A stretch of DNA of 64,000 nucleotides, taken from NCBI GenBank assembly GCA_963422735.1, contig OY730476.1:576001-640000 (forward strand), in the 5' to 3' direction. The notes beneath the pieces were generated by a model. That model worked only from the letters and a program-made list of their open reading frames with translations. It was not told where the DNA came from and did not search any database. The translations under genes were made by a program, and so were the position numbers. The stretch comes from Candidatus Latescibacterota bacterium. GTDB lineage: Bacteria; Latescibacterota; UBA2968; UBA8231. This document shows positions 1 through 44,381 of this stretch, one piece after another (the first letter of the stretch is position 1; every line of letters starts with the position of its first letter).

Positions 1-153
1 CGCGAGCAGACCGGCGGGATTTACACCGAGATGTGGGATGGGCAAAGCGATGCCGACGAGGCCGTGCCCCCGGGCAGTTACGTGGTCTCGCTCTCAGTTG
101 ATAGCGGGATCGGCAACTTCAGGCGGGTCGGCGTTATTGGCGTCGCCTATTGA
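1..153 (+). CDS. 3' end of secreted protein with FlgD-Ig-like C-terminal domain (partial)
   Basis: Frame 1 reads REQTGGIYTEMWDGQSDADEAVPPGSYVVSLSVDSGIGNFRRVGVIGVAY*. WDG..D....PPG.Y motif and terminal AY match the three CTD proteins at 10.9-17.8 kb. Confidence 0.85.
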   Translation, partial: REQTGGIYTEMWDGQSDADEAVPPGSYVVSLSVDSGIGNFRRVGVIGVAY

Positions 154-280
154 ATCTGTGCGAAGACGCCCAAGAAGTTCTCTGCGCTAACACTCCCAAC
201 TTCCAACGCGTTAAAGCCGCGACTCAGTGCAGGTGCCCTTCGACGCTTTGCGGTACCCTAGTGCGGCTGATTAGGTGGCG

Positions 281-421
281 ATGGGCAAAGAGGCCGATGG
301 CATTGTGGTAACGGGCGTGGCGGCCCTGGACCAAGTGCTGAGACGATTTGGAGTGCAAAGGGCGTTCTATCTCAAAGATGTGGAACCCGTTCGCACGGAA
401 CGAAGATGGCCGGCGCGATAG
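281..421 (+). CDS. possible 46-aa small ORF or gene remnant
   Basis: ATG at 281 preceded by AGGTGG; MGKEADGIVVTGVAALDQVLRRFGVQRAFYLKDVEPVRTERRWPAR*; too short for the ORF track. Confidence 0.25.
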   Translation: MGKEADGIVVTGVAALDQVLRRFGVQRAFYLKDVEPVRTERRWPAR

Positions 422-472
422 GCCCAAAAGGGATAGCTCAAAAACATAAAAATTCATAAGGGAGGGTTTTCC

Positions 473-3100
473 ATGAAGCGCATGCTCTGCGCAGCACTCG
501 CGATGTTAGGCATCGCGCTCGCGCACGATGGTGCCTTGGCCCAACGGGTCGGTTTTCTCACCGGACGCGAACCGCGAGGCGTGGATGTCTATGAGATGGC
601 GATGACGCCGGCGCAGCGGAAGTGGCAGTATCCGCAAAGCCTGTACCACTTCTACCGCTGGACTGGCGAGGAATACAGCAATTACGCGCGCGAAATATAC
701 GAGCGGTACGTGGGGACTGAACTAGAGGGATTTCGCACCTACGATCTGTACGGCAATTACATCACGCGCGGCTTTGAGGTGTACACTTGGTCGGTCGATA
801 GCCCGGTGACTTCCGGCAGCGAGGTTCGCAAAGGACTCTACTACTCACGGTTCTTTAGCGGCCTGATCGTCTCGTCCATGTCCAAGGGGCAGTTCTACTC
901 GTCGATGACCATTGGCGAGGCCCTGCGCACCACCCTGACGCCGCTGACCTTTTCCAAGCCAACCTTCAATGGGGTGCAGTGGGACTTTGCCGCCGACAAG
1001 TACCAGATGACCCTCTTGGCGTCGCGCTTGGCCTCCCCGGGCACGGCTGTGGCGCTTGAAAATTCGCTCGGCCAGATCCTAGGCGACATGACCAACCTCT
1101 TCGGTGTGCATTCCAAAGTGCAGCTCGGGGATTTCTCCAAGCTGGGCTTTACCTATCTGAACATTGCCAACTTCTCCACCGGTCGCAAATTGGGCGACAA
1201 CTCGCTCAAAGGGGTATTGACTGAGGCCCAAAACGGCGGCAATATCGAGACGATCGTCCTGCGGCTGTCGGACGATTCGCCCGAAGACGGCGTAGGCGGT
1301 GCCCAGCTTTTTGCCGAGCGCATTATCATCGACGGGGTCGATCACCCCGAGATCGTCCCTTCGCCGCGCGGCGGCGTGCGGCGCGCCGGCGTCATCGAGG
1401 CCAATGGGGCCGAAACCTTGGAGCTGACTTACAACATAGCCCGCGACTTCCGCCAACAGCCCGGCGACGAGATCACCACCTTTCAGGAGATCCGCGAAAT
1501 CGAGTTTGAGTTGGTCATCGCCAACGACTATCGGATCGAAATCACCTCCAATCTGCAAGTCAACGGCCAGGGCGAGCCCGTGTTCTTGGAGGTCGAGCGC
1601 GCCCATGGCAACGTCGGCGACGGCTCGAACCAGCGTTTCATCAGCTTTGAATACGGCCTGCCCACCGGCAAGGACATCATTGGCCTCAACTTTGATATAG
1701 ATGACATCAAAGGGTTCAATATGCGCTCGGAGATTGCCCTCAGCCGGGCGTTTCGCCGCTTTCCCAACCAGAACTTCCAAGAACACACCCTCGCTCAAGA
1801 CGACGGCTTGGCCTATTACCTCACGGCCTCACAGGACGCGTATCCGTTCTTCGCGTACGGAGAATTCTACCGCCTAGAGCCTGAGTACCAGACCAATGCG
1901 TTTATCGCGGATGCGCGGGGTTTTATCGACTACGAACATCCAGAGCGCTATTCCTTTGAGGCGGTTGATGACAACGACGACCAAGACCGTTTTCCCGACT
2001 GGAAGCGCCTGTGGCAAAACGGTGACAGTGCCTTTGGCCAAACGCCTTTTGGCACCGGCGGTGCAGCCGACCCGCAGGTCTTTCCCGGATACGACGAGAA
2101 CGCGGATTTTATCTCGGACTTCAACCAAAACGACAACGGCCAGCCGGATTTTGCCGAGCCGTTTCTGCGCTACAACGTCGATCCGCCCGAGTTTCTCTTT
2201 GGCGTTGACATGAACAACAACAACGTCATTGACCGCTTTGAAAACGACACCTTCGCCGATTATCCCTACCGACAGGATCGCGATGGTTACAATGTGTACG
2301 GGGGTGTTCACTTGACCGAAGGCATCAAGCTGACGGTAGGCCACTCCGCAGCCGATGAGATCAGTTCCAAGCGCAGTGCGCAGATGAGCTATGCGGTGCT
2401 TACGGGTCAGTGGAAGTGGCCGGGCATCGAGGCCCGGGCTTTCCAATACGCCCGCTCGGTCCAAGACGACATCGAAGACGATGTGATCGAATGGGTCGAT
2501 CCAGATGGATTTCGCGAAACCATCGATCCACTGATCGCCCAAGATGCCTTTGTCTGGACCGGCTATCTGACTCTCGATTACCTGCGCCTCAAAAACCTGA
2601 ATATCTACAACAAGGTGAAGTACGATTGGTTTAGGCAGCGCGGCGAGCAGGCCGAGGTCAAAGACAATCGCCTCTTTTTTGGCGCGATCAACAAGGTGGA
2701 TTATCCGCTACCGATTACCGATAACTTGTCTTTCTGGCCGCGCTACAAGAGCGTCTTCCGCAAGATCAACCCGACCTTTAGCACCGACCTCGACATTATC
2801 GAGTGGTCGCAGTTTTACATGCTGACCTCAAAGTACTTCATCCTGCCTGGGACCTTTATTGAATACGGCGTCGAGTTGAACCTCTTCCGCAATCTCGAAG
2901 AGCGCCCGGAGATCTTGCCGCCTGGATACGTCGATGACTTCACGGGTTCGGTGCTGGCCTTACAGCTTTCCAACAGGTCGGCGTACCTTGGTTATTCACT
3001 GATCATGAACACGGGTTTTCGCTGGGAGCGCCGAGCCTTTGCCGAAGCGACCGAAACCAACTCGCTGCTCTTCATTCGGGTCTTTGCGGGTCTCCAATAG
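473..3100 (+). CDS. secreted 875-aa protein, putative outer-membrane beta-barrel with Ca-binding acidic repeats
   Basis: RBS GGAGG, Sec signal peptide (ALA-Q), Dx[DN]x[DN] loops (DDNDDQD, DENADFISD, NQNDNGQPD, DMNNNNVID), alternating aromatic/hydrophobic strands in the C-terminal third ending LFIRVFAGLQ. Confidence 0.7.
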   Translation: MKRMLCAALAMLGIALAHDGALAQRVGFLTGREPRGVDVYEMAMTPAQRKWQYPQSLYHFYRWTGEEYSNYAREIYERYVGTELEGFRTYDLYGNYITRGFEVYTWSVDSPVTSGSEVRKGLYYSRFFSGLIVSSMSKGQFYSSMTIGEALRTTLTPLTFSKPTFNGVQWDFAADKYQMTLLASRLASPGTAVALENSLGQILGDMTNLFGVHSKVQLGDFSKLGFTYLNIANFSTGRKLGDNSLKGVLTEAQNGGNIETIVLRLSDDSPEDGVGGAQLFAERIIIDGVDHPEIVPSPRGGVRRAGVIEANGAETLELTYNIARDFRQQPGDEITTFQEIREIEFELVIANDYRIEITSNLQVNGQGEPVFLEVERAHGNVGDGSNQRFISFEYGLPTGKDIIGLNFDIDDIKGFNMRSEIALSRAFRRFPNQNFQEHTLAQDDGLAYYLTASQDAYPFFAYGEFYRLEPEYQTNAFIADARGFIDYEHPERYSFEAVDDNDDQDRFPDWKRLWQNGDSAFGQTPFGTGGAADPQVFPGYDENADFISDFNQNDNGQPDFAEPFLRYNVDPPEFLFGVDMNNNNVIDRFENDTFADYPYRQDRDGYNVYGGVHLTEGIKLTVGHSAADEISSKRSAQMSYAVLTGQWKWPGIEARAFQYARSVQDDIEDDVIEWVDPDGFRETIDPLIAQDAFVWTGYLTLDYLRLKNLNIYNKVKYDWFRQRGEQAEVKDNRLFFGAINKVDYPLPITDNLSFWPRYKSVFRKINPTFSTDLDIIEWSQFYMLTSKYFILPGTFIEYGVELNLFRNLEERPEILPPGYVDDFTGSVLALQLSNRSAYLGYSLIMNTGFRWERRAFAEATETNSLLFIRVFAGLQ

Positions 3101-3128
3101 TAGGGCTGCACTATTTCCTTGTGGATCC

Positions 3129-3168
3129 AAAGCACCCGGCGTTCTCTAGCGGAGATGCCGGGCGCTTT
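3129..3168 (+). terminator. GC-rich stem-loop after the 875-aa gene (terminator or mRNA-stabilising hairpin)
   Basis: AAAGCACCCGGCGTTCTC-TAGC-GGAGATGCCGGGCGCTTT imperfect inverted repeat, only a short T tail. Confidence 0.45.
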
Positions 3169-3181
3169 ACTGCCTAACAGT

Positions 3182-4426
3182 ATGGACATGCGCCTTGCCG
3201 CGACATGGATAGGGCTAGTCGGCCTCCTCGGAGGGATCGGCTGTGATTCCCCGGAACGCCACGTTCTCAAAAAGCCTGCCACGCCCCAGCCCCTCGCGTT
3301 CTACCAGCGCGCCTACGAGCAAAACCCCGCAGACCCAGAGGTGCTCTTGGCCTTGGGGTGGCTCTACCTACAAAAGGACCGTACGCGCCACGCCGTCGCC
3401 GTGCTGTCCGCACTGGGCGCGGTTGCGCCCGACGACGCGGATGCCCACTACTACCTCGGGGTTGCCCTCGCCAAAGAGCACCGCAAGAGCGAAGCCATAG
3501 CCTCCTTTAAGCGAGCACTTGAAAAGGCACCGGCCTTTGCCGAGGTGTACTGGGCCTTGGCATTGCTGTACAACGAGCGCGGCGATGGGTATGAAAAGGC
3601 GCTTGCAACGGCCGAAGAGGGATTGCAACTGGCTGCGGAGAGCGGCTATGGGCACTTCGTGTTGGGTTTTGTGCTGTGTTCGCGCGGCGACAATGAAAAC
3701 GCCAAGACTGCGCTGCTCAAGGCGATTGAACTCGATCCCGGCTTGGCCCACGCCTACTACTACTTGGCACTGGTGTACTTGCGCTTGCAGGACGATGAGC
3801 AAGCCATAGGGGCCATGGAGCAGACTATTGCCGCTGACCCGGGTTACTCCTCGGCCTATTACAGCTTAGGTACGCTCTATGCGCGCACGGGCCGCGTGGC
3901 CGAGGGAGCGCGAATGAGTGAGCTTTTTCAGCAGTTGAGTAGCACGACGATGGACGAGGATCACTACCGCCGCTTGCTCTATCGCCAGGCCGTGCCGCTG
4001 GCGGCCGACAAGCGGGTGGCCACGCATTTCAACTTGGGATTGGTTTACTTGCACAGAAAGGAGCTAGCAGCGGCACGCGAGCAGTTTGAGGCGGCCTTGG
4101 CCCTTGATTCCACGTACGCGGAGGCCAGCCACAACATCGGGGTGATCTATTCGCTACAAGAGCAACACGCGGTTGCCCGGCCCTTTTTGCTGCGTGCGGT
4201 GCGCCACAAGCCCGACTACGCTTTGGCCTTTGAGAACATCGGCAACAACAGTTTGGCCCTCGGCGAGTACGAGGCTGCGGCCGCTGCGTTTCGCCGCGCC
4301 TTGGCTCTCGACGGGAGCATGGCCTCGGCCCTCGACGGCTTGGGCACCGCGCTGATCCAGCAGGGCCGCGTGGCAGAAGGCCGCGCGGCTCGCGTCGAGG
4401 CCGCAGCCTTGAGGGCACAACGGTAA
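3182..4426 (+). CDS. TPR-repeat lipoprotein
   Basis: Lipobox-like GGIGC after a hydrophobic stretch; many TPRs (AHYYLGVAL, AYYSLGTLY, THFNLGLVY); start placed at ATG 3182 (3188 also possible). Confidence 0.85.
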   Translation: MDMRLAATWIGLVGLLGGIGCDSPERHVLKKPATPQPLAFYQRAYEQNPADPEVLLALGWLYLQKDRTRHAVAVLSALGAVAPDDADAHYYLGVALAKEHRKSEAIASFKRALEKAPAFAEVYWALALLYNERGDGYEKALATAEEGLQLAAESGYGHFVLGFVLCSRGDNENAKTALLKAIELDPGLAHAYYYLALVYLRLQDDEQAIGAMEQTIAADPGYSSAYYSLGTLYARTGRVAEGARMSELFQQLSSTTMDEDHYRRLLYRQAVPLAADKRVATHFNLGLVYLHRKELAAAREQFEAALALDSTYAEASHNIGVIYSLQEQHAVARPFLLRAVRHKPDYALAFENIGNNSLALGEYEAAAAAFRRALALDGSMASALDGLGTALIQQGRVAEGRAARVEAAALRAQR

Positions 4427-6118
4427 ATGCGGTTTGTACTAGCCGTGATTTGGGCGTTGGCAGGGTGCGGGGGCAAGGAGACGCGGCCCAGTTTCGTCGA
4501 TGTGGCTGCCGAAGCGGGCGTTCGCTTGCGCACAGTATCTGGGACGCCGCAAAAAGAGCACATCGTCGAATGCAACACGGGCGGGACGGCCCTTTTAGAC
4601 TACGACCTAGATGGGGACGTGGATATTTTTATCGTCAACGGCACCAGCCTTGCCGGATATGCCCCGGGCCGCGAACCCCGCGCCGAGCTGTACCGCAACG
4701 ACGGTGCTTGGTGCTTTACAGGCGTTGGTCGCGAGGCTGGCGTCGCCCGCGTGGGCTGGGGCATGGGGGTTGCGGCGGCCGACTACAACGCCGATGGGTG
4801 GCCCGATCTGTACCTATCGAACTACGGCCCCAACGCCCTGTACGAAAACGAAGGCGACGGCACGTTTGTCGATGTGGCGGCCGAGCGGGGCGTGGATTTT
4901 GGTGGCTGGAGCTCGTCTGCGGCCTTTGGCGACTACGACCTCGACGGCGACTTGGACTTCTACTTGGCCAATTACATCGACTTTGATCCGGCGTTTCGCC
5001 CGGCCGATCCGAGCTATTGCACTTGGCGAGGGCTGGACGTATTCTGCGGCCCGCGCGGGATGCCGGGCGAGCGGGATCAATTCTATCGCAACGACGGCCC
5101 TAGCGCGGGTTGGGCCTTTGCCGAGGCCAGTGCGGCCTTTGGCGTTGCTGACTACGAGTACTATGGTTTTGCCGCGCTGGCTGGCGACTGGGACGAGGAC
5201 GGTGACTTGGACATTTACATTGCCAATGATTCGACGCCGAATGTGCTCTACCGCAACGACCGGAGCGCGTTTGTGGACGTGTCGCTCCTGTCGGCAACTG
5301 CGTACAGCGAGGACGGCCGCGAACAGGGTGGCATGGGCTTGGCGGCCGGAGACTACGATCGCGACGGCGATTTCGACCTCTTCGTCACCAATTTCTCGCA
5401 CGACAACAACGCGCTCTACGAGAACAATGGCCGGGGGTTTTTCACCGACGTCAGCTTCATCTCGGTTCTAGGCCGTGCGAGTATCAGTTCCTTGGGATGG
5501 GGAACGGGTTTTTTCGATTGCGACAACGACGGCGACGACGACCTGTTCGTCGCCAACGGCCACGTGTACCCGGCCGTTGACCGCCGCGACTTAGGCACCC
5601 ACTACGCCCAGCGCAATCACTTGTTTGAGAATCGCGACGGTGCATTTGTCGAGGTCGGCGCGGCGGTAGGCCGAGGTTTGGCAGTGGAAAAGTCGAGCCG
5701 CGGCGCGGCCTTCGGGGATTTGGACAACGATGGCGACTTGGACCTTGTGGTGGTCAACATCGACGACACGCCGACCTTGCTGCGCAACGACGGAGGCAAT
5801 CGCCACAACTATTTGATGGTGAGGCTGCTCGGTGCCGGCGACAATACAGACGCCATTGGTGCTCGGGTCGCGGTTGCGGTGGGTGGCGCAGTGCAGATGC
5901 GGGAGGTGCGCGCGGGCACGGGGTACCTGTCGCAGGACGACCTGCGGCTGCACTTCGGCTTGGGACGGGCGACCGCGGCCGACTCCCTCGTGGTGCGCTG
6001 GCCCGATGGGGTGGAAGAGCGCATCGACGGGGTGGCGGGCAACCGGCTGATTACTATCCAGCGCGGCGCGGGCCTCGTCGCCGAGGGGTTTGGGCCGGTG
6101 CCGAGGCTGGAGCCGTGA
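4427..6118 (+). CDS. CRTAC1-family lipoprotein (FG-GAP/VCBS propeller + ASPIC/UnbV)
   Basis: LAGC lipobox; repeated DYDLDGDLD motifs; SRGAAFGDLDNDGDLD; C-terminal AIGARV...GYLSQ...LHFGLG...VRWPDG. Confidence 0.92.
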   Translation: MRFVLAVIWALAGCGGKETRPSFVDVAAEAGVRLRTVSGTPQKEHIVECNTGGTALLDYDLDGDVDIFIVNGTSLAGYAPGREPRAELYRNDGAWCFTGVGREAGVARVGWGMGVAAADYNADGWPDLYLSNYGPNALYENEGDGTFVDVAAERGVDFGGWSSSAAFGDYDLDGDLDFYLANYIDFDPAFRPADPSYCTWRGLDVFCGPRGMPGERDQFYRNDGPSAGWAFAEASAAFGVADYEYYGFAALAGDWDEDGDLDIYIANDSTPNVLYRNDRSAFVDVSLLSATAYSEDGREQGGMGLAAGDYDRDGDFDLFVTNFSHDNNALYENNGRGFFTDVSFISVLGRASISSLGWGTGFFDCDNDGDDDLFVANGHVYPAVDRRDLGTHYAQRNHLFENRDGAFVEVGAAVGRGLAVEKSSRGAAFGDLDNDGDLDLVVVNIDDTPTLLRNDGGNRHNYLMVRLLGAGDNTDAIGARVAVAVGGAVQMREVRAGTGYLSQDDLRLHFGLGRATAADSLVVRWPDGVEERIDGVAGNRLITIQRGAGLVAEGFGPVPRLEP

Positions 6119-7752
6119 AGGCGCGCTACGGAATGGTCCTGCTGCTGTGTTGCAATGCCGCCGCGGAATCGCGCTTTGTCGATATCGCGCAATCTGCTGG
6201 AGTCGATTTTGTCCACCGCAATGGCGCGGCCGGCGCGCGCTATTTGCCCGAGACCTACGGCTCGGGTGCTGCATTTTTGGATTTCGACGGCGATGGTGCG
6301 CTCGACCTCTACTTGGTCAACTCCGGGCGGCTGCCCGGGCTATCGAACGCGCCCGCAGCGGCCAACGCGCTCTTTCGCAACGAAGGTGCGGGCCGCTTCT
6401 CAGAGCAGACGGCGCGGGCTGGCGTCGGCGACCGCGGCTACGGCATGGGTGCGGCCGTCGGCGACTACGATAACGACGGCCAGGCCGACTTCTACGTCAC
6501 CAATTTTGGGGCCAACGCGCTCTTCCACAATCGCGGACAGGGCCGCTTTGCCGATGTCACGGCTGCGGCTGGCGTCGGCTGCCCGGGGTGGGGGACGAGC
6601 GCGGCTTTTGCCGATGTGGATCTCGACGGGGATTTGGACCTATTCGTCGGCAACTACCTCGACTATCCGACCGCCGATCCGCTCGTGTGTCGGATCGGCA
6701 ACAGCGAGGAGCGGCTCTACTGCGACCCCCGCAAGTTCGACGGCGAGGTCGATCGCCTCTATATCAACGAAGGCCGCGCCGGCGGTTGGGCTTTTGCCGA
6801 CCGCACGGCGGCCTTCGGCCTCGCCAGCACGGCCGGCAAGGAACTGGGGGTCGTCTTTGGCGACTACGACCAAGATGGAGATCCCGATCTGTACTTGGCC
6901 AACGACCTCGTGCCCAACATGCTCTACCGCAACGACGGCTCGCTCTTTGTCGATCGGGGGCTTGCCAGCGGTACCAGCCTCAACGGCGAAGGGGGCGTCG
7001 AGGCTGGGATGGGCGTTGACATGGCCGATGCAGACGGCGACGGGGACTTGGATTTGTTCGCGACCAACTTCCAATGGGAGAGCAATACCTTGTACCGCAA
7101 CCTAGGCGGAGGGTTCTTTGCAGACGCGACCGTGGAGTCGGGCATCGCCCGCGCCAGCATGGCCTTTCTCGGGTTTGGTACGGGGTTCTTCGACTGCGAC
7201 AACGACGGCGATCTCGACCTGTTCGTCGCCAACGGCCATGTGTACGACAACGTGGAAAAGGTCGATCGGGCGGCTGAGTACGCACAGCGCAATCAGCTTC
7301 TCGAAAACGTCGGCGCAGGTACTTTTGTAGAGCGCGGCGAGCGCGGCCCGGGCCTCGCGCTGGTACAGGTCAGTCGCGGGGCCGCATTCGGCGACATCGA
7401 CAGCGATGGCGACTTGGATATTGCGGTGAGCAACTCCAATGACCGGCCGGCCCTGTTGCGCAACGACGCAGAGGCCAGCGGGTGGTTGGGGCTTAAGTTG
7501 CAAGGCGCGGCGAGCAACCGCGACGCGATTGGGGCGCGGATCGCGCTGACCAGTGGCGGTCGCACCCTCGTACGCGAGGTGCGCCGCAGCGCGAGCTATC
7601 TGTCGTCGAACGACCCGCGCGTGCTTTTTGGCCTCGGCAACGCCGAGGTCGCCGAGCGAGTTGAGATTCGCTGGCCATCTGGTGCCGTCCAAGTCGTCGA
7701 GGCCCTGCCTGGGCGGCAATACGTGGTCATGGAGGAGGATACTAGTCGGTGA
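6115..7752 (+). CDS. CRTAC1-family protein (FG-GAP + ASPIC/UnbV)
   Basis: Same architecture (DFDGDGALD, DYDNDG, AIGARI, SYLSS, FGLG, IRWPSG); GTGA overlap with the upstream gene. Confidence 0.92.
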   Translation: MKARYGMVLLLCCNAAAESRFVDIAQSAGVDFVHRNGAAGARYLPETYGSGAAFLDFDGDGALDLYLVNSGRLPGLSNAPAAANALFRNEGAGRFSEQTARAGVGDRGYGMGAAVGDYDNDGQADFYVTNFGANALFHNRGQGRFADVTAAAGVGCPGWGTSAAFADVDLDGDLDLFVGNYLDYPTADPLVCRIGNSEERLYCDPRKFDGEVDRLYINEGRAGGWAFADRTAAFGLASTAGKELGVVFGDYDQDGDPDLYLANDLVPNMLYRNDGSLFVDRGLASGTSLNGEGGVEAGMGVDMADADGDGDLDLFATNFQWESNTLYRNLGGGFFADATVESGIARASMAFLGFGTGFFDCDNDGDLDLFVANGHVYDNVEKVDRAAEYAQRNQLLENVGAGTFVERGERGPGLALVQVSRGAAFGDIDSDGDLDIAVSNSNDRPALLRNDAEASGWLGLKLQGAASNRDAIGARIALTSGGRTLVREVRRSASYLSSNDPRVLFGLGNAEVAERVEIRWPSGAVQVVEALPGRQYVVMEEDTSR

Positions 7753-10893: not shown

Positions 10894-10930
10894 ATTTTTT
10901 ATACTATTTAGCCTAGCGGGAGAAGAAATT

Positions 10931-12976: not shown

Positions 12977-12986
12977 GGAAGCACTC

Positions 12987-15419
12987 ATGTACAACCGAGC
13001 CATCGCCTTAGTATTGCTGCTTGCCTGCCACGCACGCGCCGAGTTTCTCACCTTCGCCAGCCAAGCGGCTTGGGAGGCCAACTGGTCGCTCAAGCCGCAG
13101 TTAAATATCTTCACCCCGGAGGGGCACCTAGGGCTGGTCAAGTTTCGCAAGGACATCAACGCCGCGCTCGACGCCCATCTCTTCGTCCACCCGACGAATG
13201 AGCGCGGGGATGTAGCGGGCGGCATCTGGTCTGCGCTAAGCAACCCAAACGACGCCCCCCAAATCATCGACGGGGATGCTGCCACCTTTTGGAAGCCGGC
13301 TGGTGGCGATCCACTTGACAAGTGGATCGTGCAAATAGACTTGGGCCGCGCAGTATTGGCCAAAGAGATCCGCATCTACTTCCCCGATGAAGAGGGGGCT
13401 AAGCCCTTCCGCCAGTTCAGCGTCTTCGCCTCTACGGGTGCCCACGTGGCGGCTTTAGAGGATGTATATCGCTTCGCGCCGATCTATCGCACGACTAAGC
13501 CCAACTTGGATACCTATGTCAGCTTTGGGTTCAAGCCGGCCGTGGAGGATACCACCCGCGCCGTGGAGCAACTGAGCGATGTCAGCGGTCGCGATGATTT
13601 TACCGTGGACTTATTCAGATTCAAGGCCAACACCGCAACGGAGACCGGCCAAGCGGATTCGCGGGTGGCGGCCAACTCCGAGTGGCAGACGATCCAGTTC
13701 ATCCGCTTCCTCGTCGATGAGCACCAGCTCGACGGCGCGCTCGCCGAGATCGAAGTCATTGCCGTCGGCGACAACATCAGCCTTGGGGTAGAAGAAAAAG
13801 GTGGCACCTACATCAATGGATCGCGGGCGACCGACCCCTTATTTTGGCTCGACGGCAACCTCAATACGTACGGGGTTATCGAGGTGCATCAGCAGTTTAC
13901 CGAGTCGCGCGGCACGGCCTTTGAAGGGGGCTTGTGGTGGCAGGTGGATCTGGGGGCTACCTACTGGGTTGACGACGCGTTCGTCTATTGGCAAAAGGCC
14001 GGAGAGCGCCTCGCCGACTTTCGCTTGGGCACCAACAACGCCGGCACGGGGTACACCTTTTTCTCTTCCGACGGGACCAAGACCTTGACCGGCGACATCG
14101 ACTTTGATACGTGGATTTTTGAACCGGAATGGACCAATCCCCGCGAACAATACAAGCGGCATTACCGCTATTTGTTCAATCCACGCAAGGTGCGGCACAT
14201 CTTCTGGCTAGCCCTGCACGACTTGGGCTGGCGCGCCCATCCGATGGAGCTACAGATGTTCTCCCCGGGCCACCCGGCCGAAGTCGCGATTCAATCGCAT
14301 TTTTTGGACCTGAGCGTCCTCGCTGGCGACGGACAGCCCAAGGTAATCAAGGCGCTTCACTACGACGCCGACCTGCCGCCCAATACCCAGATCGAACTGC
14401 GCTCCCGCTCGGGCAACGAGATGGGCGAGGTGTACACCTTTCACAACAAGATCGGCGAGGTCGTCACCGAGGAGAAGTGGAAAAGCTCGCCCAAGGTGCT
14501 GCGGGGCCGAGTGGATACCTCGGTTGTCGTCGGAGAGGAGTGGAGCGAGTGGAGCAACTTGTACAAGCTGTCGGGCGAGCCTTTTAAGTCGGACTCGCCG
14601 CGCAGGTTCGTCCAGCTAGAGCTGGTTATGAGCACGGAAGATCCGGAGGTGGCTCCCACGGTGCGCTCGGTCGAGTTGGAGTTTGTCGATGCGTTGGTCA
14701 ACGAGGCGCACGGGTCCATTCTGCCGCGCCAGGCCAAGCCCAACGAAGACACCCGTTTCACCTATATGCTATGGCCGTCCGCGACCCCGGAGAACGTGGG
14801 CTTTGACCGCCTGCGCTTGGTCGTGCCCGACTTGGTGCGGGCCGATGAGGTTGAGGTGATGGTCGCCGATCAGGCGGTCGTGCCGGCCGCCATGGACATT
14901 GCAGCGGATTCGCTGATGATCGACTTGCCGCAGGTGGTTCAGGGCGACTCCGTGCAGGTCTTCTTCACCACTCGGCTAATGAGGAACGCCGCGGTCGTAG
15001 AGGCCGATTTGGGCCTGAGCGACGCGCCCGGCCTGTGGCAGGACGTCGAGCCGGCCGAGCGCCGGTCCAACGTGGTGCTCCTGCCCGATCTGGCCGACAG
15101 CGACCGCTTGATTGGCGACTTGCAGCTTTCGAGCCGGATGCTCACGCCCAATGGCGATGGAGTCAACGACTTTGTGGCGCTGAGCTTTGTCGTCTTCAAG
15201 GCCCAAGATGCTATGCCTATGGTCGAGGTGCGCAGCTTGGGCGGTCGGCCCGTGGCCCAATTGACGCCGGTCGCAGAGGGGCCAACCCGCCGCTTTAGGT
15301 GGGATGGCCAAGACGCGGACGGTGCGATTGTGCCCCCAGGCATCTATCTCTGGCGCATAGACGTAAACGCAGACTCAGGTGACGCTATCGAGCTACGAGT
15401 TGTCGAGGTAGCCTACTAA
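12987..15419 (+). CDS. secreted protein with tandem discoidin-like domains and PNGDGxND/FlgD-Ig C-terminal domain
   Basis: Signal peptide MYNRAIALVLLLACHARA; WIVQIDLG and WWQVDLG; LTPNGDGVND...WDGQD...VPPGIY...VEVAY*. Confidence 0.85.
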   Translation: MYNRAIALVLLLACHARAEFLTFASQAAWEANWSLKPQLNIFTPEGHLGLVKFRKDINAALDAHLFVHPTNERGDVAGGIWSALSNPNDAPQIIDGDAATFWKPAGGDPLDKWIVQIDLGRAVLAKEIRIYFPDEEGAKPFRQFSVFASTGAHVAALEDVYRFAPIYRTTKPNLDTYVSFGFKPAVEDTTRAVEQLSDVSGRDDFTVDLFRFKANTATETGQADSRVAANSEWQTIQFIRFLVDEHQLDGALAEIEVIAVGDNISLGVEEKGGTYINGSRATDPLFWLDGNLNTYGVIEVHQQFTESRGTAFEGGLWWQVDLGATYWVDDAFVYWQKAGERLADFRLGTNNAGTGYTFFSSDGTKTLTGDIDFDTWIFEPEWTNPREQYKRHYRYLFNPRKVRHIFWLALHDLGWRAHPMELQMFSPGHPAEVAIQSHFLDLSVLAGDGQPKVIKALHYDADLPPNTQIELRSRSGNEMGEVYTFHNKIGEVVTEEKWKSSPKVLRGRVDTSVVVGEEWSEWSNLYKLSGEPFKSDSPRRFVQLELVMSTEDPEVAPTVRSVELEFVDALVNEAHGSILPRQAKPNEDTRFTYMLWPSATPENVGFDRLRLVVPDLVRADEVEVMVADQAVVPAAMDIAADSLMIDLPQVVQGDSVQVFFTTRLMRNAAVVEADLGLSDAPGLWQDVEPAERRSNVVLLPDLADSDRLIGDLQLSSRMLTPNGDGVNDFVALSFVVFKAQDAMPMVEVRSLGGRPVAQLTPVAEGPTRRFRWDGQDADGAIVPPGIYLWRIDVNADSGDAIELRVVEVAY

Positions 15420-15436
15420 CCGGTTGGAGCGGTAGG

Positions 15437-17788
15437 ATGCTAAACAAATACGGGATTTGCTGCTTGCTCTTGGGACTATTGCTCTACGGTTCGAGCCGGG
15501 CGGAGGAAGTCCGCTTCGACACCCCGGCCGAGTGGGCGACTTGGGATATCCCGGTGGATATCGTCCAGTTTGCAGACGACGGATCGCTGGAACTGAGGAA
15601 ATTTCGCAAGGAGATCAACGCCACCCTCGATGCCCATCTCTTCACCCAGCCTACCCAGAAGCGTGGCGAAATCGCCGGGGGGATCTGGCAGGCAGGCTCC
15701 AATCCGATGGCGGCTCAGCGCATCATGGACGGCAATCTGGAGACGGTGTGGCGGCCCAATTCGGCCGACGACTTGGTCGATTGGGTGGTGACTATCGACT
15801 TGGGACGGCCCGTGCTAGCTGAGCGCATTCGCTTGGTTTTTCCCGACCGTACAGGCGCACGTCCCTTGCGTCAATTCAGCGTCTTCACGGCCAATGGGGC
15901 GCGCATCCAAGCCACAGACGATGTCTTCAAGTTCGACCAAGCCTTTCAGACGACCCAGCCCAACCAAGAGCAGGTCGTCGATATCGAGCTAGTCGGCGAG
16001 CGCGACATAACGCGAGTTCTCGACGAAAGCCTCGGGCTGGAGCCGGACGCGCTGAATACCTTCCGCATGGTGCGCTTTGTGCGCGTACGCGCCGACGAAA
16101 AGAGCGCGGACGCGGCCTTGGCCGAAGTGGAGGTGATCGCCGCGGGCGACAACATAAGCATCGGGGTCTTGGCGCGCGGGGGCAGCTTCGACAACGGGCT
16201 TTTGGCGCGCGAGCCGCAGAACATGTTCGACGGCATCACCGACACGTACGGCAATATATTCACCGTCCAGAGCAAAGGCGGTTGGCGCGAGAGCGGAGTG
16301 TGGTGGGCCGTCGATCTAGGTGCGCTGTTCTGGCTCGACGAAGCATTCATCTACTGGCAGAATCGAGGCGAGGGCCTGTCGAGCTTCTTGTTTGAGGGGT
16401 TGCAGGCCGGCACTGGCTACCAAGTCCTCTTTTCCGATGGGCGGCGCACCATTGCCGGCGACATTGACTACGCGCCGCTGATCTTCGAGCCAAGGCCGGT
16501 CAACAGCGCAGAGTGGGCCTTGCGCCACCACCGCTACGTATTTGCCCCGCGCAAGATTCGCTACCTGTTCTGGCATTCGCTGACCGATACCGGCTGGTTT
16601 TCCCACCCCATGGAGCTGATGTTGTTCTCGCCGGGCTATCCCGCGCAGGTGGTGTTGCGATCGGGCTTTATCGACCTCGGGCAACTCGCCGGCGACGGTC
16701 GCCCCAAGGCCATCAAGCGCTTGCGCTGGGAGGCGACAGCGCCTGACCAGACGCGGTTGCAAGTGCGCTCGCGCGCGGGCAGCACCCTGCAAGAGTTATA
16801 CACGTTTTACGACAAAAAAGGCGAGCAAGTCACCGAGACGCGCTACAGCAGCTTGCCCAAAGTGATCCGAGGCCCCATTGACACCATGGTCGTCGTGGGG
16901 GCCGATTGGGGTCCGTGGAGCAACTTCTACCAGTTTTCCGGCGAGGCATTTAAGTCTCAGACGCCGCGTCGCTTTATCCAGTTAGAGCTGATTATTTCCA
17001 CGGAGGATCCAGCCGTCGCGCCAGTGCTACACGCCCTCGCACTGGATTTTGAGGACGCGTTGGTCGCGCAGGCTACCGGGCAGATTGCGCCGCGCCGCGC
17101 CGTGCCCAACGAGGCGACGCGGTTTGCGTACACGGTGCGGACGAGCGCGGCGGAGGGCGACTCGGGTTTCGACCGGCTGCGCTTATCTACGCCGAGTGCT
17201 GTCGATGCAGCGGATGTGCGGCTGCGGATCGGCGGTGCAGAGCGCGAGGCGAGCGGGGTGCGCGTGGTGGGGGATTCGCTGCTGTTCGTCGATTTGCCAG
17301 AGACCGTGCGGACGGATTCCATCGCCGTGGAATTTACCACTAAAGTGCTGCGCAACGCCACGGTCTTTGCTGCCGACTTAGGGCAAGAGGCACGTCCGGG
17401 GCTGTGGCAGTCGGTGGAGGCGGCCGAGCGGCAAGCCAACTTGGTGTTTCTACCCACTCTGCCCGGCAGCGTGCGGCTGGTCGGCGATTTGCAGATTGTG
17501 CCGCCGGTGTTTTCGCCCAACGGCGATGGTATCAACGACCGCGTGCAGATCCGCTTTGCGCTGTTCAAGGCCGTCGATGCCACCCCGAGCGTGTGCATTT
17601 TCGACTTGGCGGGTAGGGAAGTGGCCGCTCTTATGTCATCTGATGGGGATGTGTTACAGTCATTTAGCTGGGACGGGTTGGATGCGTCGGGAGTTCGGGT
17701 TGCGCCTGGGGTGTACGTGTGCCGCATTGACGCGGGAGCTGACGCCGGACAGGGACGAGTATTCCGCACCCTAGCCGTAGCCTATTGA
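15437..17788 (+). CDS. secreted paralog of 12987..15419 with PNGDGxND/FlgD-Ig C-terminal domain
   Basis: Shares KFRK.INA.LDAHLF, RQFSVF, HPMEL..FSPG, GDG.PK.IK, FKS..PRRF.QLEL with the upstream gene; FSPNGDGIND...WDGLD...LAVAY*. Confidence 0.85.
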   Translation: MLNKYGICCLLLGLLLYGSSRAEEVRFDTPAEWATWDIPVDIVQFADDGSLELRKFRKEINATLDAHLFTQPTQKRGEIAGGIWQAGSNPMAAQRIMDGNLETVWRPNSADDLVDWVVTIDLGRPVLAERIRLVFPDRTGARPLRQFSVFTANGARIQATDDVFKFDQAFQTTQPNQEQVVDIELVGERDITRVLDESLGLEPDALNTFRMVRFVRVRADEKSADAALAEVEVIAAGDNISIGVLARGGSFDNGLLAREPQNMFDGITDTYGNIFTVQSKGGWRESGVWWAVDLGALFWLDEAFIYWQNRGEGLSSFLFEGLQAGTGYQVLFSDGRRTIAGDIDYAPLIFEPRPVNSAEWALRHHRYVFAPRKIRYLFWHSLTDTGWFSHPMELMLFSPGYPAQVVLRSGFIDLGQLAGDGRPKAIKRLRWEATAPDQTRLQVRSRAGSTLQELYTFYDKKGEQVTETRYSSLPKVIRGPIDTMVVVGADWGPWSNFYQFSGEAFKSQTPRRFIQLELIISTEDPAVAPVLHALALDFEDALVAQATGQIAPRRAVPNEATRFAYTVRTSAAEGDSGFDRLRLSTPSAVDAADVRLRIGGAEREASGVRVVGDSLLFVDLPETVRTDSIAVEFTTKVLRNATVFAADLGQEARPGLWQSVEAAERQANLVFLPTLPGSVRLVGDLQIVPPVFSPNGDGINDRVQIRFALFKAVDATPSVCIFDLAGREVAALMSSDGDVLQSFSWDGLDASGVRVAPGVYVCRIDAGADAGQGRVFRTLAVAY

Positions 17789-17796
17789 GGAATGCC

Positions 17797-19671
17797 ATGA
17801 CTGTCGCTCCAGCGGTGTATCGAGATCAGAAGTGGATTATATCGCCTTTTGGCGACCTGTTCTTTTTTATTGGTACGCCGCTTTTGTGCTTGGTGACCAT
17901 GCTGCCGCTGCGGGCCGTGTTCGACTCGCAGACCATTGCTTTCTACGCGCTGGCGCTGTTTGCCACCGGGCATCATTTACCTGGCTTTATGCGCGCATAC
18001 GGTGACCCAGAGCTATTCCGCACCTTCAAGGAGAAGTTCGTCGTCGCGCCAATTGTCGTGCTCGTCGTGACGGCGCTGGCGCAATTCAATACCCTGCATG
18101 GGCTGTTCTTGGTGGTCTTGGTGTGGGAGATCTGGCATTTGTTTATGCAGCACTACGGCATCATGCGGATCTACGACGCCAAAAACAAGATATTCTCCAA
18201 GCTCAATTCCCGGCTCGACTGGTTGTTGACCTTATGTGCTTTTGTAACAGTCGTCATCTATAGCCCCGAATACTTCCACCGCATCCTCGACCACAACCAG
18301 CGGGTCGGCGTACCCTTTCTGTCAGCCGAGTTGACGTTCCTGCTCAAAAAGGTGCTGTTCTATTTTACGATGGCCGTACTCGCGGCTTACTTGGCCAATA
18401 TCGTCCAGCGGGCAGTTACCGGTCAAAAGATAAGCCTGCCCAAGGTCGCGGTGATGGCGACGACGGTGTTTATCATCTACTATGGCTGGATACATATCAA
18501 CGACCTCGTCATCGGCTACGCGGCCTTTGCCGTTTTCCACGATATCCAGTACTTCGCCATCGTCTGGATCTACAACAACAACCTAGTCAAAAGGCAGGAG
18601 CGCACCACCAAGCTCCTGCGCACCTTCTTCACCACGCGCACCTTGCCGATCTTGGTCGCGTACGTGCTAATATGCTTCGCCTACGGCAGCATCAACATGA
18701 TGGAGGGCTTCCTCAAGTCCGAGCAGGCGATCAAGATGGTCGAGATATTCGTCATCACCTCGACGCTTTTGCACTACTACTTCGACGGGTTTATCTGGAA
18801 AATCCGCGACCGCAAAAACCAAGCCAATTTGGGAATCAATGCCGAGGAGGGGTCCAACCGCATTGGATTGCAAGCATTGCCGAGCGGCTTGGCCTCGTAC
18901 TTGCGCGAGACCGGCAGGCAGTTGGCCTATTTCGCGGTGCCGGTGATGGCGTTCTCGCTTTTCCAGTTTTACTGGACGGCCGACGAGGCTGAGGCGCGGG
19001 AGAAGATGGTCGAATTGTTCCCGGACTTGGCCGGTGCCCACAACAACCTCGGCGTCTTGTACGCGCGGCAGGGCAATTGGGAAAAGGCCACCGACGAGTA
19101 TCGGCGGGCGCTAGAGCTGGATGCGAGGGCCTATGAGGCGCATAAGAACCTCGGTCTGCTCTACGCACGGCAGGGCGTGCTCGACAAGGCGCATGTTCAC
19201 TACCAGCAGGCGATAGACCGCAAGCCGCGCTACGTCGAAGCGCTCAACGCGCAGGGGTTGGTTTTTTTACAGCGGGGCGAGTTCGCCAAGGCCGAGGAAC
19301 GCTTTCGCGAGGCCCTTGACGAGTTCGATTACGCCCCGGCGTACAACAACCTCGGCACGGCCTATTTGCAGATGGGAAACTTGCCGGCGGCGATCTCCAC
19401 CTACGAAAGGGCCGTCGCGCTCGACCGGGCCGACGCCTCTCATCATTTCAACTTGGGGTTGGCCTTGCAGAAGGCCGGAGAGAACGAGCAGGCGGTCGCC
19501 GCGTTTGCTGCGGCCCTCTCTTTAGAGCCACGCCACGTCAAAGCTTATTTGAGTATGGCGCTTTCCTACCAGCGGCTGGGCCACCTCGCTGAGGCGCGGC
19601 AGGCGTTGCAACAGCTCTTGGCAGTGGAGCCGAACCATGCCACGGCTGCGCTGCTGTTGGCCCGAATGTGA
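17797..19671 (+). CDS. polytopic membrane protein with His motifs and C-terminal TPR domain
   Basis: Many hydrophobic segments with GHH, HLFMQHYG, FHDIQY, HYYFDGFIW; C-terminal TPRs (AHNNLGVLY, AYNNLGTAY); GAGG RBS before ATG 17797. Confidence 0.85.
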   Translation: MTVAPAVYRDQKWIISPFGDLFFFIGTPLLCLVTMLPLRAVFDSQTIAFYALALFATGHHLPGFMRAYGDPELFRTFKEKFVVAPIVVLVVTALAQFNTLHGLFLVVLVWEIWHLFMQHYGIMRIYDAKNKIFSKLNSRLDWLLTLCAFVTVVIYSPEYFHRILDHNQRVGVPFLSAELTFLLKKVLFYFTMAVLAAYLANIVQRAVTGQKISLPKVAVMATTVFIIYYGWIHINDLVIGYAAFAVFHDIQYFAIVWIYNNNLVKRQERTTKLLRTFFTTRTLPILVAYVLICFAYGSINMMEGFLKSEQAIKMVEIFVITSTLLHYYFDGFIWKIRDRKNQANLGINAEEGSNRIGLQALPSGLASYLRETGRQLAYFAVPVMAFSLFQFYWTADEAEAREKMVELFPDLAGAHNNLGVLYARQGNWEKATDEYRRALELDARAYEAHKNLGLLYARQGVLDKAHVHYQQAIDRKPRYVEALNAQGLVFLQRGEFAKAEERFREALDEFDYAPAYNNLGTAYLQMGNLPAAISTYERAVALDRADASHHFNLGLALQKAGENEQAVAAFAAALSLEPRHVKAYLSMALSYQRLGHLAEARQALQQLLAVEPNHATAALLLARM

Positions 19672-19684
19672 GCGGAAATCCTGC

Positions 19685-21859: not shown

Positions 21860-21906
21860 AAGGATCCATGGCAGAAGATAGGGGCGTTGATTATTCCGAT
21901 GGCTTT

Positions 21907-26825: not shown

Positions 26826-26853
26826 CTGCTAGCGCGAGGCAATGGGCGAACAT
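24868..26853 (-). CDS. glucose/sorbosone-dehydrogenase-like propeller + T9SS type-A-like/FlgD CTD (paralog without heme module)
   Basis: Propeller nearly colinear with 21907..24849; LGQNFPNPFNPSTTI...WDGRN...RQLMLLK*. Confidence 0.88.
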   Translation of the reverse strand: MFAHCLALAALAALCSTAYADPRATRDDIEIHRILNVPRGTIRIATDPSDDALYSLRQNGAIDRIDLAAAEHAPAYSRNDHGIRSGFTGFAIGPDGSFYLASNRRGPRDSGQFALARGFLLDADTGERQWEQLDPDNLPADIPIDDILAATSLGRDPTTDIRYALKTNGDITLVPSGTVYTAADHGFSRPSALFIDADGTFYVLKRIDLSSYNIATITKGEVDPSSGERTWYTLAETAPYERCDCIFNHEVNGLVVSLDNRSLFINSGSRTDHGEIQDGKGAFPDLRETALTAIVLRVPTDARDLVLPNDRDALLDQGFLFAEGLRNAYDLAFAPNGDLFATENGPDRDMAEELNWLREGHHYGFPWRMGLEDTPQQFPDYDPATDFLLPAGFTAVREGYYHNDPAYPPPPRDFTDPVINLGPDADKYRDSADGQIKDASEEDVRFGTFTAHRSPLGLVFDANNALAEPFQGDGFVLSWTEGDPDGDDLNGPFNDPSQDLLHLDLAKFGDNYEAHVTRLVGGFSNPIDAEIIGNRIYVIEWSGGRGLWEIVLPPAAKETAVAEAEGVAPAEFALGQNFPNPFNPSTTIAFQLALASQAELAIYSSSGQRVRTLISGFLPAGHHRLQWDGRNERGEPVASGAYLYQLSAGDFVATRQLMLLK

Positions 26854-38997: not shown

Positions 38998-41527
<2,530 letters not shown>

Positions 41528-41548
41528 TTAATCAACAAGCCCTTGAGA

Positions 41549-43246: not shown

Positions 43247-43255
43247 GATCGCCTT

Positions 43256-44368: not shown

Positions 44369-44381
44369 TAAAGGAGTTGAT

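Follow-up and report, generated by a model that had tools for sequence, protein, structure and literature searches.

The first 19.7 kb of a 64,000-nucleotide stretch from a Candidatus Latescibacterota bacterium (assembly GCA_963422735.1, contig OY730476.1, positions 576,001 to 640,000; hereafter the window) contain ten plus-strand genes in full, preceded by the 3' end of one that is cut, according to the list of open reading frames (ORFs). Among their products are an 875-aa predicted outer-membrane beta-barrel, which we call B875, and lectin-like proteins of two kinds (c1 and c3) that end in a C-terminal tail of the class known from type B cargo of T9SS (the type IX secretion system). With about even confidence, we read the region as holding most of a single copy of a Latescibacterota display module that is conserved and has been duplicated repeatedly, with the barrel in the role of PorP/SprF. 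The core parts of the module are the B875 barrel and two to four Sec-exported lectins carrying the type-B-class domain with its near-invariant final tyrosine. Predicted accessory lipoproteins, located in the outer membrane or the periplasm, include tetratricopeptide repeat (TPR) proteins, an FG-GAP/ASPIC propeller protein, a double parvulin peptidyl-prolyl isomerase (PPIase) and a protein of a family we call Y. Further predicted parts are a secreted CBM9-like protein (X) and, in some paralogues, an inner-membrane protein with DUF6785/DUF6784. The module is probably how Latescibacterota place sugar-catching proteins on their surface. The barrel family and its fixed set of companions, undescribed in this phylum, are new; the tail class and the gene logic are known.

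The features of the locus are listed below. Starts were chosen at signal peptides (3182, 10931 and 12987, replacing the longest ORFs from 3119, 10787 and 12861), and the lipoboxes in TPR1, CRT1, TPR2 and the PPIase were read by eye.

1-153, plus strand: cut c1-type lectin-like gene, last 50 aa, ending ...GVAY before the stop, type-B-class C-terminal domain (translation)
154-472, no strand: intergenic region, of which 154-448 is without counterpart in orthologous loci
473-3100, plus strand: B875, 875-aa predicted outer-membrane beta-barrel with signal peptide (AlphaFold2, Foldseek)
3182-4426, plus strand: predicted TPR lipoprotein (TPR1) whose ORF opens at 3119 (Pfam TPR families; N-terminus ...LLGGIGC; kept in orthologues)
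4427-6118, plus strand: predicted CRTAC1-like lipoprotein (CRT1), FG-GAP propeller plus UnbV_ASPIC (FG-GAP_3 158.7 bits, UnbV_ASPIC 80.7 bits; N-terminus ...ALAGC)
6115-7752, plus strand: second CRTAC1-like protein (Pfam FG-GAP_3 158.5 bits, UnbV_ASPIC 69.1 bits)
7749-9134, plus strand: second predicted TPR lipoprotein (TPR2; Pfam TPR families; N-terminus ...LAAGC)
9127-10893, plus strand: parvulin-type PPIase, probable lipoprotein, with two rotamase stretches (Pfam Rotamase_2 and Rotamase, two stretches each)
10931-12976, plus strand: c1-type lectin-like protein, 681 aa, tail ending ...NLAY (CHU_C and FlgD_ig matches)
12987-15419, plus strand: c3-type lectin-like protein, 810 aa, tail ending ...EVAY (F5_F8_type_C_2 53.9 bits, F5_F8_type_C 39.7 bits)
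15437-17788, plus strand: c3-type lectin-like protein, 783 aa, tail ending ...AVAY (AlphaFold2; Foldseek CBM32/discoidin)
17785-19671, plus strand: polytopic membrane domain (~400 aa) fused to TPR repeats, membership uncertain (TPR Pfam matches at residues ~405-628 only)

With the signal-peptide starts, the successive junctions from 4426 to 19671 measure +0, -4, -4, -8, +37, +10, +17 and -4 bp, and the B875 gene is separated from the next by 18 bp (start 3119) or 81 bp (start 3182). An earlier note on this DNA had described genes packed on the plus strand throughout, overlapping or less than 40 bp apart between 3182 and 19671, and the ORF list and junctions agree. Pfam likewise recovered TPR (genes 3, 6 and 11, counting the cut gene as the first), CRTAC1 and the double-rotamase PPIase, as the note had named them, and detected F5/8 type C domains and weak CHU_C/FlgD_ig tails. 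Its limits of 1-19671 were too narrow. In orthologous loci (numbered L001 onward, from the genome scan described below), the cut gene is immediately preceded by two further genes, X and Y (L001:6164-7960), which puts the start of the module outside the window; some paralogues add a DUF6785/DUF6784 protein.

The gene order of the window recurs in the orthologous loci L001-L015, L024 and L025 at 73-94% barrel identity, so the arrangement is not due to chance. At the DNA level, the cut gene shares 92.8% identity with the end of the c1-type gene (654 aa) that precedes the L001 barrel gene, and the 10931-12976 product is 92% identical to that of a 681-aa gene of L002. Between the window and L001-L009, homology ends at 153 and restarts at 448, and the equivalent gap in L001 is ~53 nt; the intervening 295 nt (154-448) occur nowhere else in the window or the 80 loci and match no Rfam family. 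An Rfam scan of positions 1-20000 found no family. A scan of the same positions for promoter-like sites (6 versus 4.8 expected) and terminator-like sites (24 versus 20.5 expected) did no better than shuffled sequences, so no operon boundaries were drawn from it.

Gene neighbourhood of the barrel across genomes

Scanning GTDB species genomes for the barrel yielded 555 related stretches, of which the best 80 were fetched with 10-kb flanks and their ORFs searched by BLASTP with the proteins of the window. Unassigned neighbours were annotated with Pfam in 12 representative loci and a few others, and then by BLASTP. As many as five of the 80 loci came from a single genome. A tail-bearing gene lay directly upstream of the barrel gene on the same strand in 51 of the 67 loci with at least 2.4 kb of upstream sequence. 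Where at least 7 kb was available on both sides (55 loci), tail-bearing genes were almost always present (at least one in 52, at least two in 50 and at least three in 39), together with TPR (51), PPIase (43) and CRTAC1-like genes (39).

In a FastTree phylogeny of the barrel (77 rows), deep clades at 46-50% identity to the barrel of the window each have their own gene order. Paralogous modules read, for example (B, barrel gene):

c1-c1-c3-B-PPIase-TPR
PPIase-X-Y-c1-c1-c3-B-CRTAC1-TPR
c1-c3-B-TPR
TPR<CRTAC1<PPIase<c1<...B-DUF6785-c1-c3

The locus counts above are biased towards the closest 80 of the 555 stretches; the independent evidence for linkage is roughly ten deep clades, all but one of which are linked. 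Co-occurrence of barrel, tail-bearing proteins, TPR and PPIase, on which the earlier proposal depended, is conserved across these deep paralogous clades.

Annotation of the flanks revealed sugar ABC importers adjoining three modules (L001, L047 and L066) and, elsewhere, a PL4 lyase (L034), BNR proteins (L019 and L026), a sulfatase (L071) and GFO/IDH/MocA oxidoreductases. Some source records of the module are labelled Gemmatimonadota. In particular, L005, L011, L014 and others, labelled Gemmatimonadota or Gemmatimonadetes, share 80-93% barrel identity with records that carry the Latescibacterota label; the phylum labelling of these metagenome-assembled genomes (MAGs) is thus inconsistent. A 3163-bp contig binned as a Thermoplasmata archaeon (L060) carries a c3 tail and a barrel gene, and is for that reason probably mis-binned.

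Tails, lectin-like proteins and barrel

The 171 complete tail-bearing ORFs were reduced to 46 representatives at 65% identity; these representatives minus two, plus the three tails of the window, form alignment A4 (47 rows). All 47 tails match CHU_C (Pfam PF13585, T9SS type B) at E ≤ 0.01, and 46 of 47 match FlgD_ig. NCBIfam models give weaker results: the PorU tail model matches 44 of 47 tails, the type B model TIGR04131 33 of 47 (best E 1.1e-07) and TIGR04183 29 of 47, all at E ≤ 0.01. In isolation, the tail of 15437-17788 reaches 31.8 bits on CHU_C (cut-off 27); the full-length proteins of the window fall just under that cut-off (24.4, 19.2 and 26.9 bits). Matches to the FlgD Ig domain were also obtained when whole-family profiles were compared with the PDB (3osv; E 3.1e-08 for c1, alignment A3, and 8.1e-07 for c3). 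In public records, PF13585 is precomputed on most of the listed c3 homologues, and two NCBI records of such homologues are named 'gliding motility-associated C-terminal domain-containing protein'.

The tail sits at the extreme C-terminus, with a distance of 0 to the last residue in the rows listed, and that residue is tyrosine in 167 of the 171 ORFs (115 AY, 39 VY, 8 SY and 5 IY). Hydrophobic N-terminal leaders are visible by eye in the tail-bearing proteins. Its profile matches place the tail, as a divergent member, in the known family of type B tails; its end is peculiar. The earlier note had called the module analogous to type B export and differently built; for the tail, mere analogy gives way to homology with the T9SS type B tail, given that CHU_C matches every one of the 47 tails. 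A PEP-CTERM/exosortase system, suggested by sub-threshold PrsT and EpsD matches, was rejected because no PEP-CTERM motif was present and the tails are CHU_C.

Pfam detected F5/8 type C domains in genes 9 and 10 (12987-15419, included in alignment A2, and 15437-17788) and none in gene 8 (10931-12976). AlphaFold2 predicted the 783-aa c3 protein (pLDDT, the predicted local distance difference test, 83.1) as an all-beta, multi-domain structure in which tandem CBM32 / F5-8 type C domains are followed by more beta-sandwich domains. The best Foldseek matches of this model are tandem CBM32/discoidin pairs, including ZmpB (7jfs and 7jnf), neuropilin b1b2 (target-normalised TM-score ~0.46), factor V C domains and fucolectin; archaeal S-layer proteins (TM-scores ~0.1) and a flagellar hair protein appear at lower rank. 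What the earlier note had called lectin-like cargo is thus lectin-like in its predicted fold, with tandem CBM32 and further beta-sandwich domains. It is not, however, the variable cargo family that had been supposed. Each paralogous module has its own c1-type protein (~650 aa, one or two) and its own c3-type protein (~775 aa, one), and because every module keeps its own copies of the same two kinds, the tail-bearing proteins are constant subunits and not a varying list of cargo.

The 875-aa protein itself matches no Pfam or NCBIfam model. None of 34 family members matches any Pfam model even at E ≤ 10; B875 has no Pfam or NCBIfam match to Plug, TonB_dep_Rec or SusC, and SlpA_C (cut-off 35 bits) is absent from B875 and 33 aligned relatives, in which no SLH domain was found either. 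Comparing the B875 profile with PDB sequences gave nothing below E 0.47. In an Atlas search, the nearest named cluster was DUF6029 ('TonB-dependent receptor-like'; score 0.89), which we take as a lead only, and above it stood only unnamed clusters of B875's own. Among the candidates scored, 1171 relatives were found at E ≤ 0.001. The best 120 of these are ~870-900 aa long or fragments, 0 of them with a Pfam domain, and the named ones among the relatives listed are each a 'hypothetical protein' of Latescibacterota, Gemmatimonadota or Handelsmanbacteria MAGs. Against 1.84 billion representatives, the profile recovered 948 clusters (50% identity) at E ≤ 0.001 and 303 at E ≤ 1e-30.

An AlphaFold2 model of B875 built from 34 sequences (pLDDT 66.4; pTM, the predicted TM-score, 0.65) contains 23 long antiparallel strands by DSSP, with hairpins of 2-4 residues alternating with longer links, which suggests a ~24-stranded barrel. 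Two links are very long and hold a beta-rich insertion (~236-395) and an acidic one (469-602). The top ten Foldseek matches in the PDB are all outer-membrane barrels (E 9e-10 to 1e-5, TM-scores 0.2-0.3), among them MtrB (8.8e-10), Deinococcus SlpA (ranks 2-4, 1.5e-08 to 7.4e-08), LptD and FimD (~1e-5). Residues 19-139 are conserved and poorly modelled (pLDDT <50), and the acidic stretch (window 1877-2278), with pLDDT <50 over 500-596, is the most conserved part of the family. To the eye, its D/N-rich loops, for example DxNxNxxxDxxE, resemble EF-hand/dockerin-type calcium sites. The PNGDGxND motif conserved in the tails is likewise of a calcium-binding kind.

Very probably, B875 belongs to a new family of large outer-membrane barrels with remote ties to the SlpA kind. 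The model, and a list of structural neighbours made up of outer-membrane barrels only, side with the earlier suggestion of an outer-membrane barrel over a soluble protein. As families for B875, chaperone-usher proteins, LptD and TonB-dependent receptors were rejected, showing weak fold resemblance only and zero sequence matches. A distant, highly multi-copy branch (P0167, ~980 aa) matches the B875 profile at E 3.3e-104, and 46 of its 120 listed relatives carry a precomputed SlpA_C label (PF21620). A Pfam scan of 20 distant B875 relatives for SlpA_C gave four matches, all below the cut-off (16.8-30.2 bits). At least 15 different listed P0167 relatives share one longest contig of 5,870,491 bp.

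Accessory genes and the rest of the window

The CRTAC1 architecture (FG-GAP_3 followed by UnbV_ASPIC, both above cut-offs) occurs three times in the window, at 4427-6118, 6115-7752 and, on the minus strand, 19685-22252. The PPIase is above the cut-off on Rotamase_2 (75.7 bits) and below it on all NCBIfam models of the PrsA/SurA/EpsD type (for example, EpsD 69.6 versus 108.9 bits and SurA 42.1 versus 394). X is a protein of ~300 aa with a signal peptide and a weak CBM9_1 match, found in 57 of the 80 loci by BLASTP; its profile retrieved only the CBM9 of a xylanase from PDB sequences (E 0.21). Its C-terminus is a conserved ...SWGRIK, within a motif TAVE..SWG(R/A)(I/V)K that lies a few residues before the stop and that we did not place in any known sorting signal. 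Y, a predicted lipoprotein of ~260 aa belonging to no family, is 43-65% identical across paralogues and present in 51 of the 80 loci, and its profile found nothing among PDB sequences. A membrane protein of ~650 aa with DUF6785 and DUF6784 (E down to 1e-126) occurs in 28 of the 80 loci and belongs to several paralogous modules; no publication on DUF6785 came up in a full-text search that did not cover most subscription journals. Examples are:

X: L001:6164-7090, L047:1886-2779, L033:12625-13539 and 54 other loci
DUF6785/DUF6784 protein: L028:12605-14545, L033:1478-3427, L036:3373-5211 and 25 other loci

Whether the last gene of the locus (17785-19671) belongs to the module is uncertain. Its product has six or more hydrophobic stretches in a crude hydropathy scan. 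The membrane part has no match in the 80 loci, in which the orthologous flanks end short of its position, and an Atlas search with it returned only unnamed clusters, none above 0.88. Adjoining the DUF6785 gene of L036 on the minus strand (772-3309) is a gene for an 845-aa homologue of TMEM260-like protein O-mannosyltransferases; together with the membrane-TPR gene of the window, it hints at glycosylation of module proteins.

The remainder of the window is mostly housekeeping by Pfam. Directly following the locus are three minus-strand genes:

19685-22252, minus strand: third CRTAC1-like gene, TPR-like N-terminal part plus FG-GAP_3 and UnbV_ASPIC (Pfam)
21907-24849, minus strand: GSDH-like propeller protein, longer paralogue, type A tail (TIGR04183)
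24868-26853, minus strand: GSDH-like propeller protein, shorter paralogue, type A tail (TIGR04183)

The longest ORF of the first of these overlaps the upstream gene by 346 bp and has an arginine/proline-rich opening; the more likely start is a lipoprotein-type one at 21859 (724 aa). The GSDH-like pair scores 23.8 and 28.1 bits on TIGR04183 (cut-off 23), and both proteins end in ...LLK, so two distinct tail classes stand side by side in the window. In the longer of the two, a region matching SO2930-type dihaem cytochrome c stays below the threshold (236 bits versus 313). Further along, 41345-46645 (plus strand) encodes a Wzi-like outer-membrane protein and, after it, a radical SAM/SPASM protein flanked by two family 2 glycosyltransferases (GT2). 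These genes make up a small cluster of the surface-polysaccharide or peptide-modification type that has no relation to the lectin module.

Proposed working, alternative readings and known systems

In the display module as we picture it, the lectins would reach the periplasm via Sec, be handled there by the PPIase and TPR proteins and cross the outer membrane by a T9SS-like route. Their C-terminal domains would then bind the neighbour-encoded barrel, which would hold them on the surface as a PorP/SprF-like shuttle or anchor, with the TPR and propeller lipoproteins playing a PorE-like part, and the displayed lectins would capture glycans. B875 is favoured as the surface partner of the tails because a gene with a type B tail is followed by the barrel gene, with TPR and propeller lipoproteins beside them. 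Glycan capture is suggested as the purpose by the sugar-binding domains and the flanking sugar genes. A T9SS-like export route is plausible in view of the type A tails in the window and of a review that, in one passage, allows that T9SS may occur in other phyla within the FCB (Fibrobacteres-Chlorobi-Bacteroidetes) group (PMC11285876).

The known parallel comes from Bacteroidota. In Flavobacterium, according to one study (PMC12618676), a porP/sprF-like gene commonly lies directly downstream from the gene for a type B cargo, with its barrel as the cognate shuttle, and one orphan shuttle is reported for three orphan cargoes. PorP is described as binding both PG1035, a type B protein, and PorE, which is periplasmic, in one complex, and SprF as binding SprB (PMC9143113). 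PorE combines TPR, propeller, CRD and OmpA-like domains (PMC12773672). A full-text literature search, with most subscription journals and supplements not covered, found no publication on T9SS in Latescibacterota and no described system of this composition, in line with the earlier note, which had recognised none. The secretion-system passages of one paper found in this search (PMC4454575) mention a type VI system only.

Several observations weigh against a PorP/SprF role for B875 and against a T9SS-like route. PorP/SprF proteins are far smaller than 875 aa, and PorP_SprF matches neither B875 nor any of its relatives (0 of 34 family members by Pfam, none by NCBIfam). The barrel model is of moderate quality (pLDDT 66, with residues 19-139 and 500-596 below 50 and TM-scores of only 0.2-0.3), and the C-terminus of B875 (...FAGLQ) is non-aromatic. 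The tail of the window scores 22.2 bits on TIGR04131, below the 35-bit cut-off, and is below both curated NCBIfam cut-offs; the CHU_C match spans positions 3-72 of the 86 in the profile, which places the terminal ...AY strand outside the known model. Mean tail identity is 37-40% in all four classes compared, being 37.8-38.5% within modules and 37.2-40.2% between them, so the tail sequences hold no signal of module-specific pairing. The 80 loci include many near-identical orthologues from closely related genomes, and the genomes are fewer than the loci. Eight barrel genes (L016-L023, 65-71% identical to that of the window) are without tail-bearing, PPIase or CRTAC1-like neighbours. By Pfam, the other genes of the window include no T9SS parts, and a TXSScan survey reports T9SS in Bacteroidetes only, as stated in part of that paper (PMC4793230). 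A complex prediction of B875 residues 24-875 (A1) with a 105-aa tail (A4) gave 0.00 in both runs, made without controls, and counts neither way.

The eight orphan barrel genes form a clade that is sister to the subclade of the window (16 rows, 80-94% barrel identity). Their flanks reach 1.4-10 kb per side, with the full 10 kb on both sides only in some. They stand among unrelated genes (for example, L017:9917-12571 and L019:8432-11065), including those for a RecD2 helicase, a short-chain dehydrogenase/reductase, a thiamine pyrophosphokinase and a BNR protein, and the orphan barrel of L019 adjoins the BNR protein and an enolase-superfamily enzyme. At least one MAG contains both an orphan barrel (L017) and a module of the window type (L010).

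A tentative alternative is that the genes form a glycan-uptake module analogous to SusC/D, in which B875 would be an oligosaccharide channel, the lectins surface binders and the TPR lipoproteins SusD-like; the tails would then serve export or anchoring via another partner, and a common substrate would link the genes. The CBM32 / F5-8 type C build of c1 and c3, the weak resemblance of X to CBM9, the sugar ABC importers directly adjoining three modules, the lyase, BNR, sulfatase and oxidoreductase genes in other flanks, and the enzyme beside the orphan barrel of L019 all fit this account, as do the many paralogous copies per genome, a pattern expected of substrate-specific uptake loci. However, B875 has no match to Plug or to TonB-dependent receptors, and the module has no energy-coupling part; Pfam finds neither carbohydrate-active enzymes nor a sugar importer in the window; and the flanking enzymes, annotated only in 12 representative loci and a few others, vary by locus. 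Uptake is also compatible with display, since the barrel could be both anchor and conduit.

Export might instead be self-contained, which we regard as doubtful: a ~24-strand, usher-sized B875 would be the translocon, the PPIase and TPR proteins dedicated chaperones and the final tyrosine the signal, with no T9SS involved. The size and strand count lie in the range of FimD/PapC ushers and LptD, both among the Foldseek matches, and the PPIase (43/55) and TPR genes (51/55) are frequent companions. Tyrosine at the end of 167 of 171 tails suggests that a free C-terminus is read. T9SS is reported as confined to Bacteroidota in the relevant parts of PMC4793230 and PMC12618676, and the literature search returned nothing on T9SS in Latescibacterota. 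Against this, B875 has no sequence relation to ushers (TM-scores ~0.2), the tails are homologous to T9SS tails, the type A tails in the window argue for a T9SS-like machine, and no energy source is evident in the module. It is similarly unlikely that B875, with the PPIase, TPR, propeller and Y proteins, constitutes an unrecognised Latescibacterota export-and-display pathway independent of the Bacteroidota T9SS core. In such a pathway the ~24-strand barrel would recognise the CHU_C-like domain and the free C-terminal tyrosine, let the lectins pass through it or along its side and hold on to them, and the pairing of type B tail and partner would be older and more modular than T9SS itself.

Still less probable is a surface coat or adhesion system, with B875 as an abundant barrel of the SlpA kind tying a lectin layer or adhesins to the outer membrane, and the paralogues serving variation or different attachment targets instead of nutrient capture. 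SlpA barrels hold Foldseek ranks 2-4, distant B875 relatives carry Pfam SlpA_C, and c3 has archaeal S-layer and flagellar hair proteins among its lower-ranking matches; Flavobacterium adhesins such as SprB carry type B tails, as noted in a passage of PMC9143113. But neither an SlpA_C match nor an SLH domain was found for B875, the TM-scores of c3 to the S-layer proteins are low (~0.1), and the sugar-importer neighbours fit nutrient capture better. That the genes are mere neighbours without joint function is very improbable: the eight orphan barrels do stand apart from the other parts, but the same families accompany the barrel in every other deep clade despite reordering and 46-50% identity, and the genes of the window overlap or abut.

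T9SS and type B tails have been treated as a Bacteroidota speciality, and here an uncultured sister phylum has the same tail family linked to a different, much larger barrel family that lacks a database model. Should the barrel be the partner of the tails, the pairing of tail and cognate barrel can be served by unrelated barrels, which would help to order the origins of the system. For about ten 'hypothetical' genes, found up to five or more times per Latescibacterota genome, the display module also offers a concrete reading. It further suggests how these bacteria, reported to degrade polysaccharides, may capture glycans with no SusC/D. For databases, it adds four families of proteins that have no model: B875, X, Y and the c1/c3 bodies.

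Among known systems, Deinococcus SlpA (SlpA_C PF21620; PDB 8ae1, 7zgx and 8agd) resembles B875 as a large all-beta barrel, and its SlpA_C domain occurs on distant sequence relatives of B875. Unlike SlpA, B875 has no SlpA_C match and no SLH or coiled-coil part (TM ~0.22), and it carries two large insertions, of which one is acidic with many D/N loops. Chaperone-usher systems (FimD, PapC) also pair a ~24-strand barrel with periplasmic helpers encoded alongside (Foldseek E ~1e-5), but B875 has no Usher or PapD match (TM ~0.2) and the lectins do not resemble pilins. The polysaccharide utilization loci of Bacteroidota (SusC/SusD) likewise encode a barrel, a helical-repeat lipoprotein and surface sugar-binding proteins together, in many paralogous loci per genome, and sugar importers or carbohydrate enzymes lie near some copies of the Latescibacterota module. 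The module differs in having no TonB-dependent receptor, Plug or SusD match, no fixed glycoside hydrolases, and binders with export tails instead of lipid anchors.

The comparison with T9SS type B and PorP/SprF sets (SprB-SprF, Fjoh_3952-Fjoh_3951 and PG1035-PorP-PorE) has two sides. Unlike PorP/SprF, B875 is 875 aa long and has no PorP_SprF match; the CHU_C model does not reach the last strand of the tail (...AY), and the cut-off of TIGR04131 is missed; the same two tail-bearing kinds occur in every Latescibacterota module, in contrast to diverse type B cargo; the PPIase, CRTAC1-like, X, Y and DUF6785 proteins are extra fixed parts; and the phylum is one without a described T9SS. The two share the CHU_C family and the signal peptides, a tail-bearing gene with the barrel gene directly downstream (51 of 67 loci), several cognate sets per genome together with 'orphan' barrels (L016-L023, compared with the orphan shuttle of Flavobacterium) and, as in PorE, TPR and propeller proteins, here encoded near the module.

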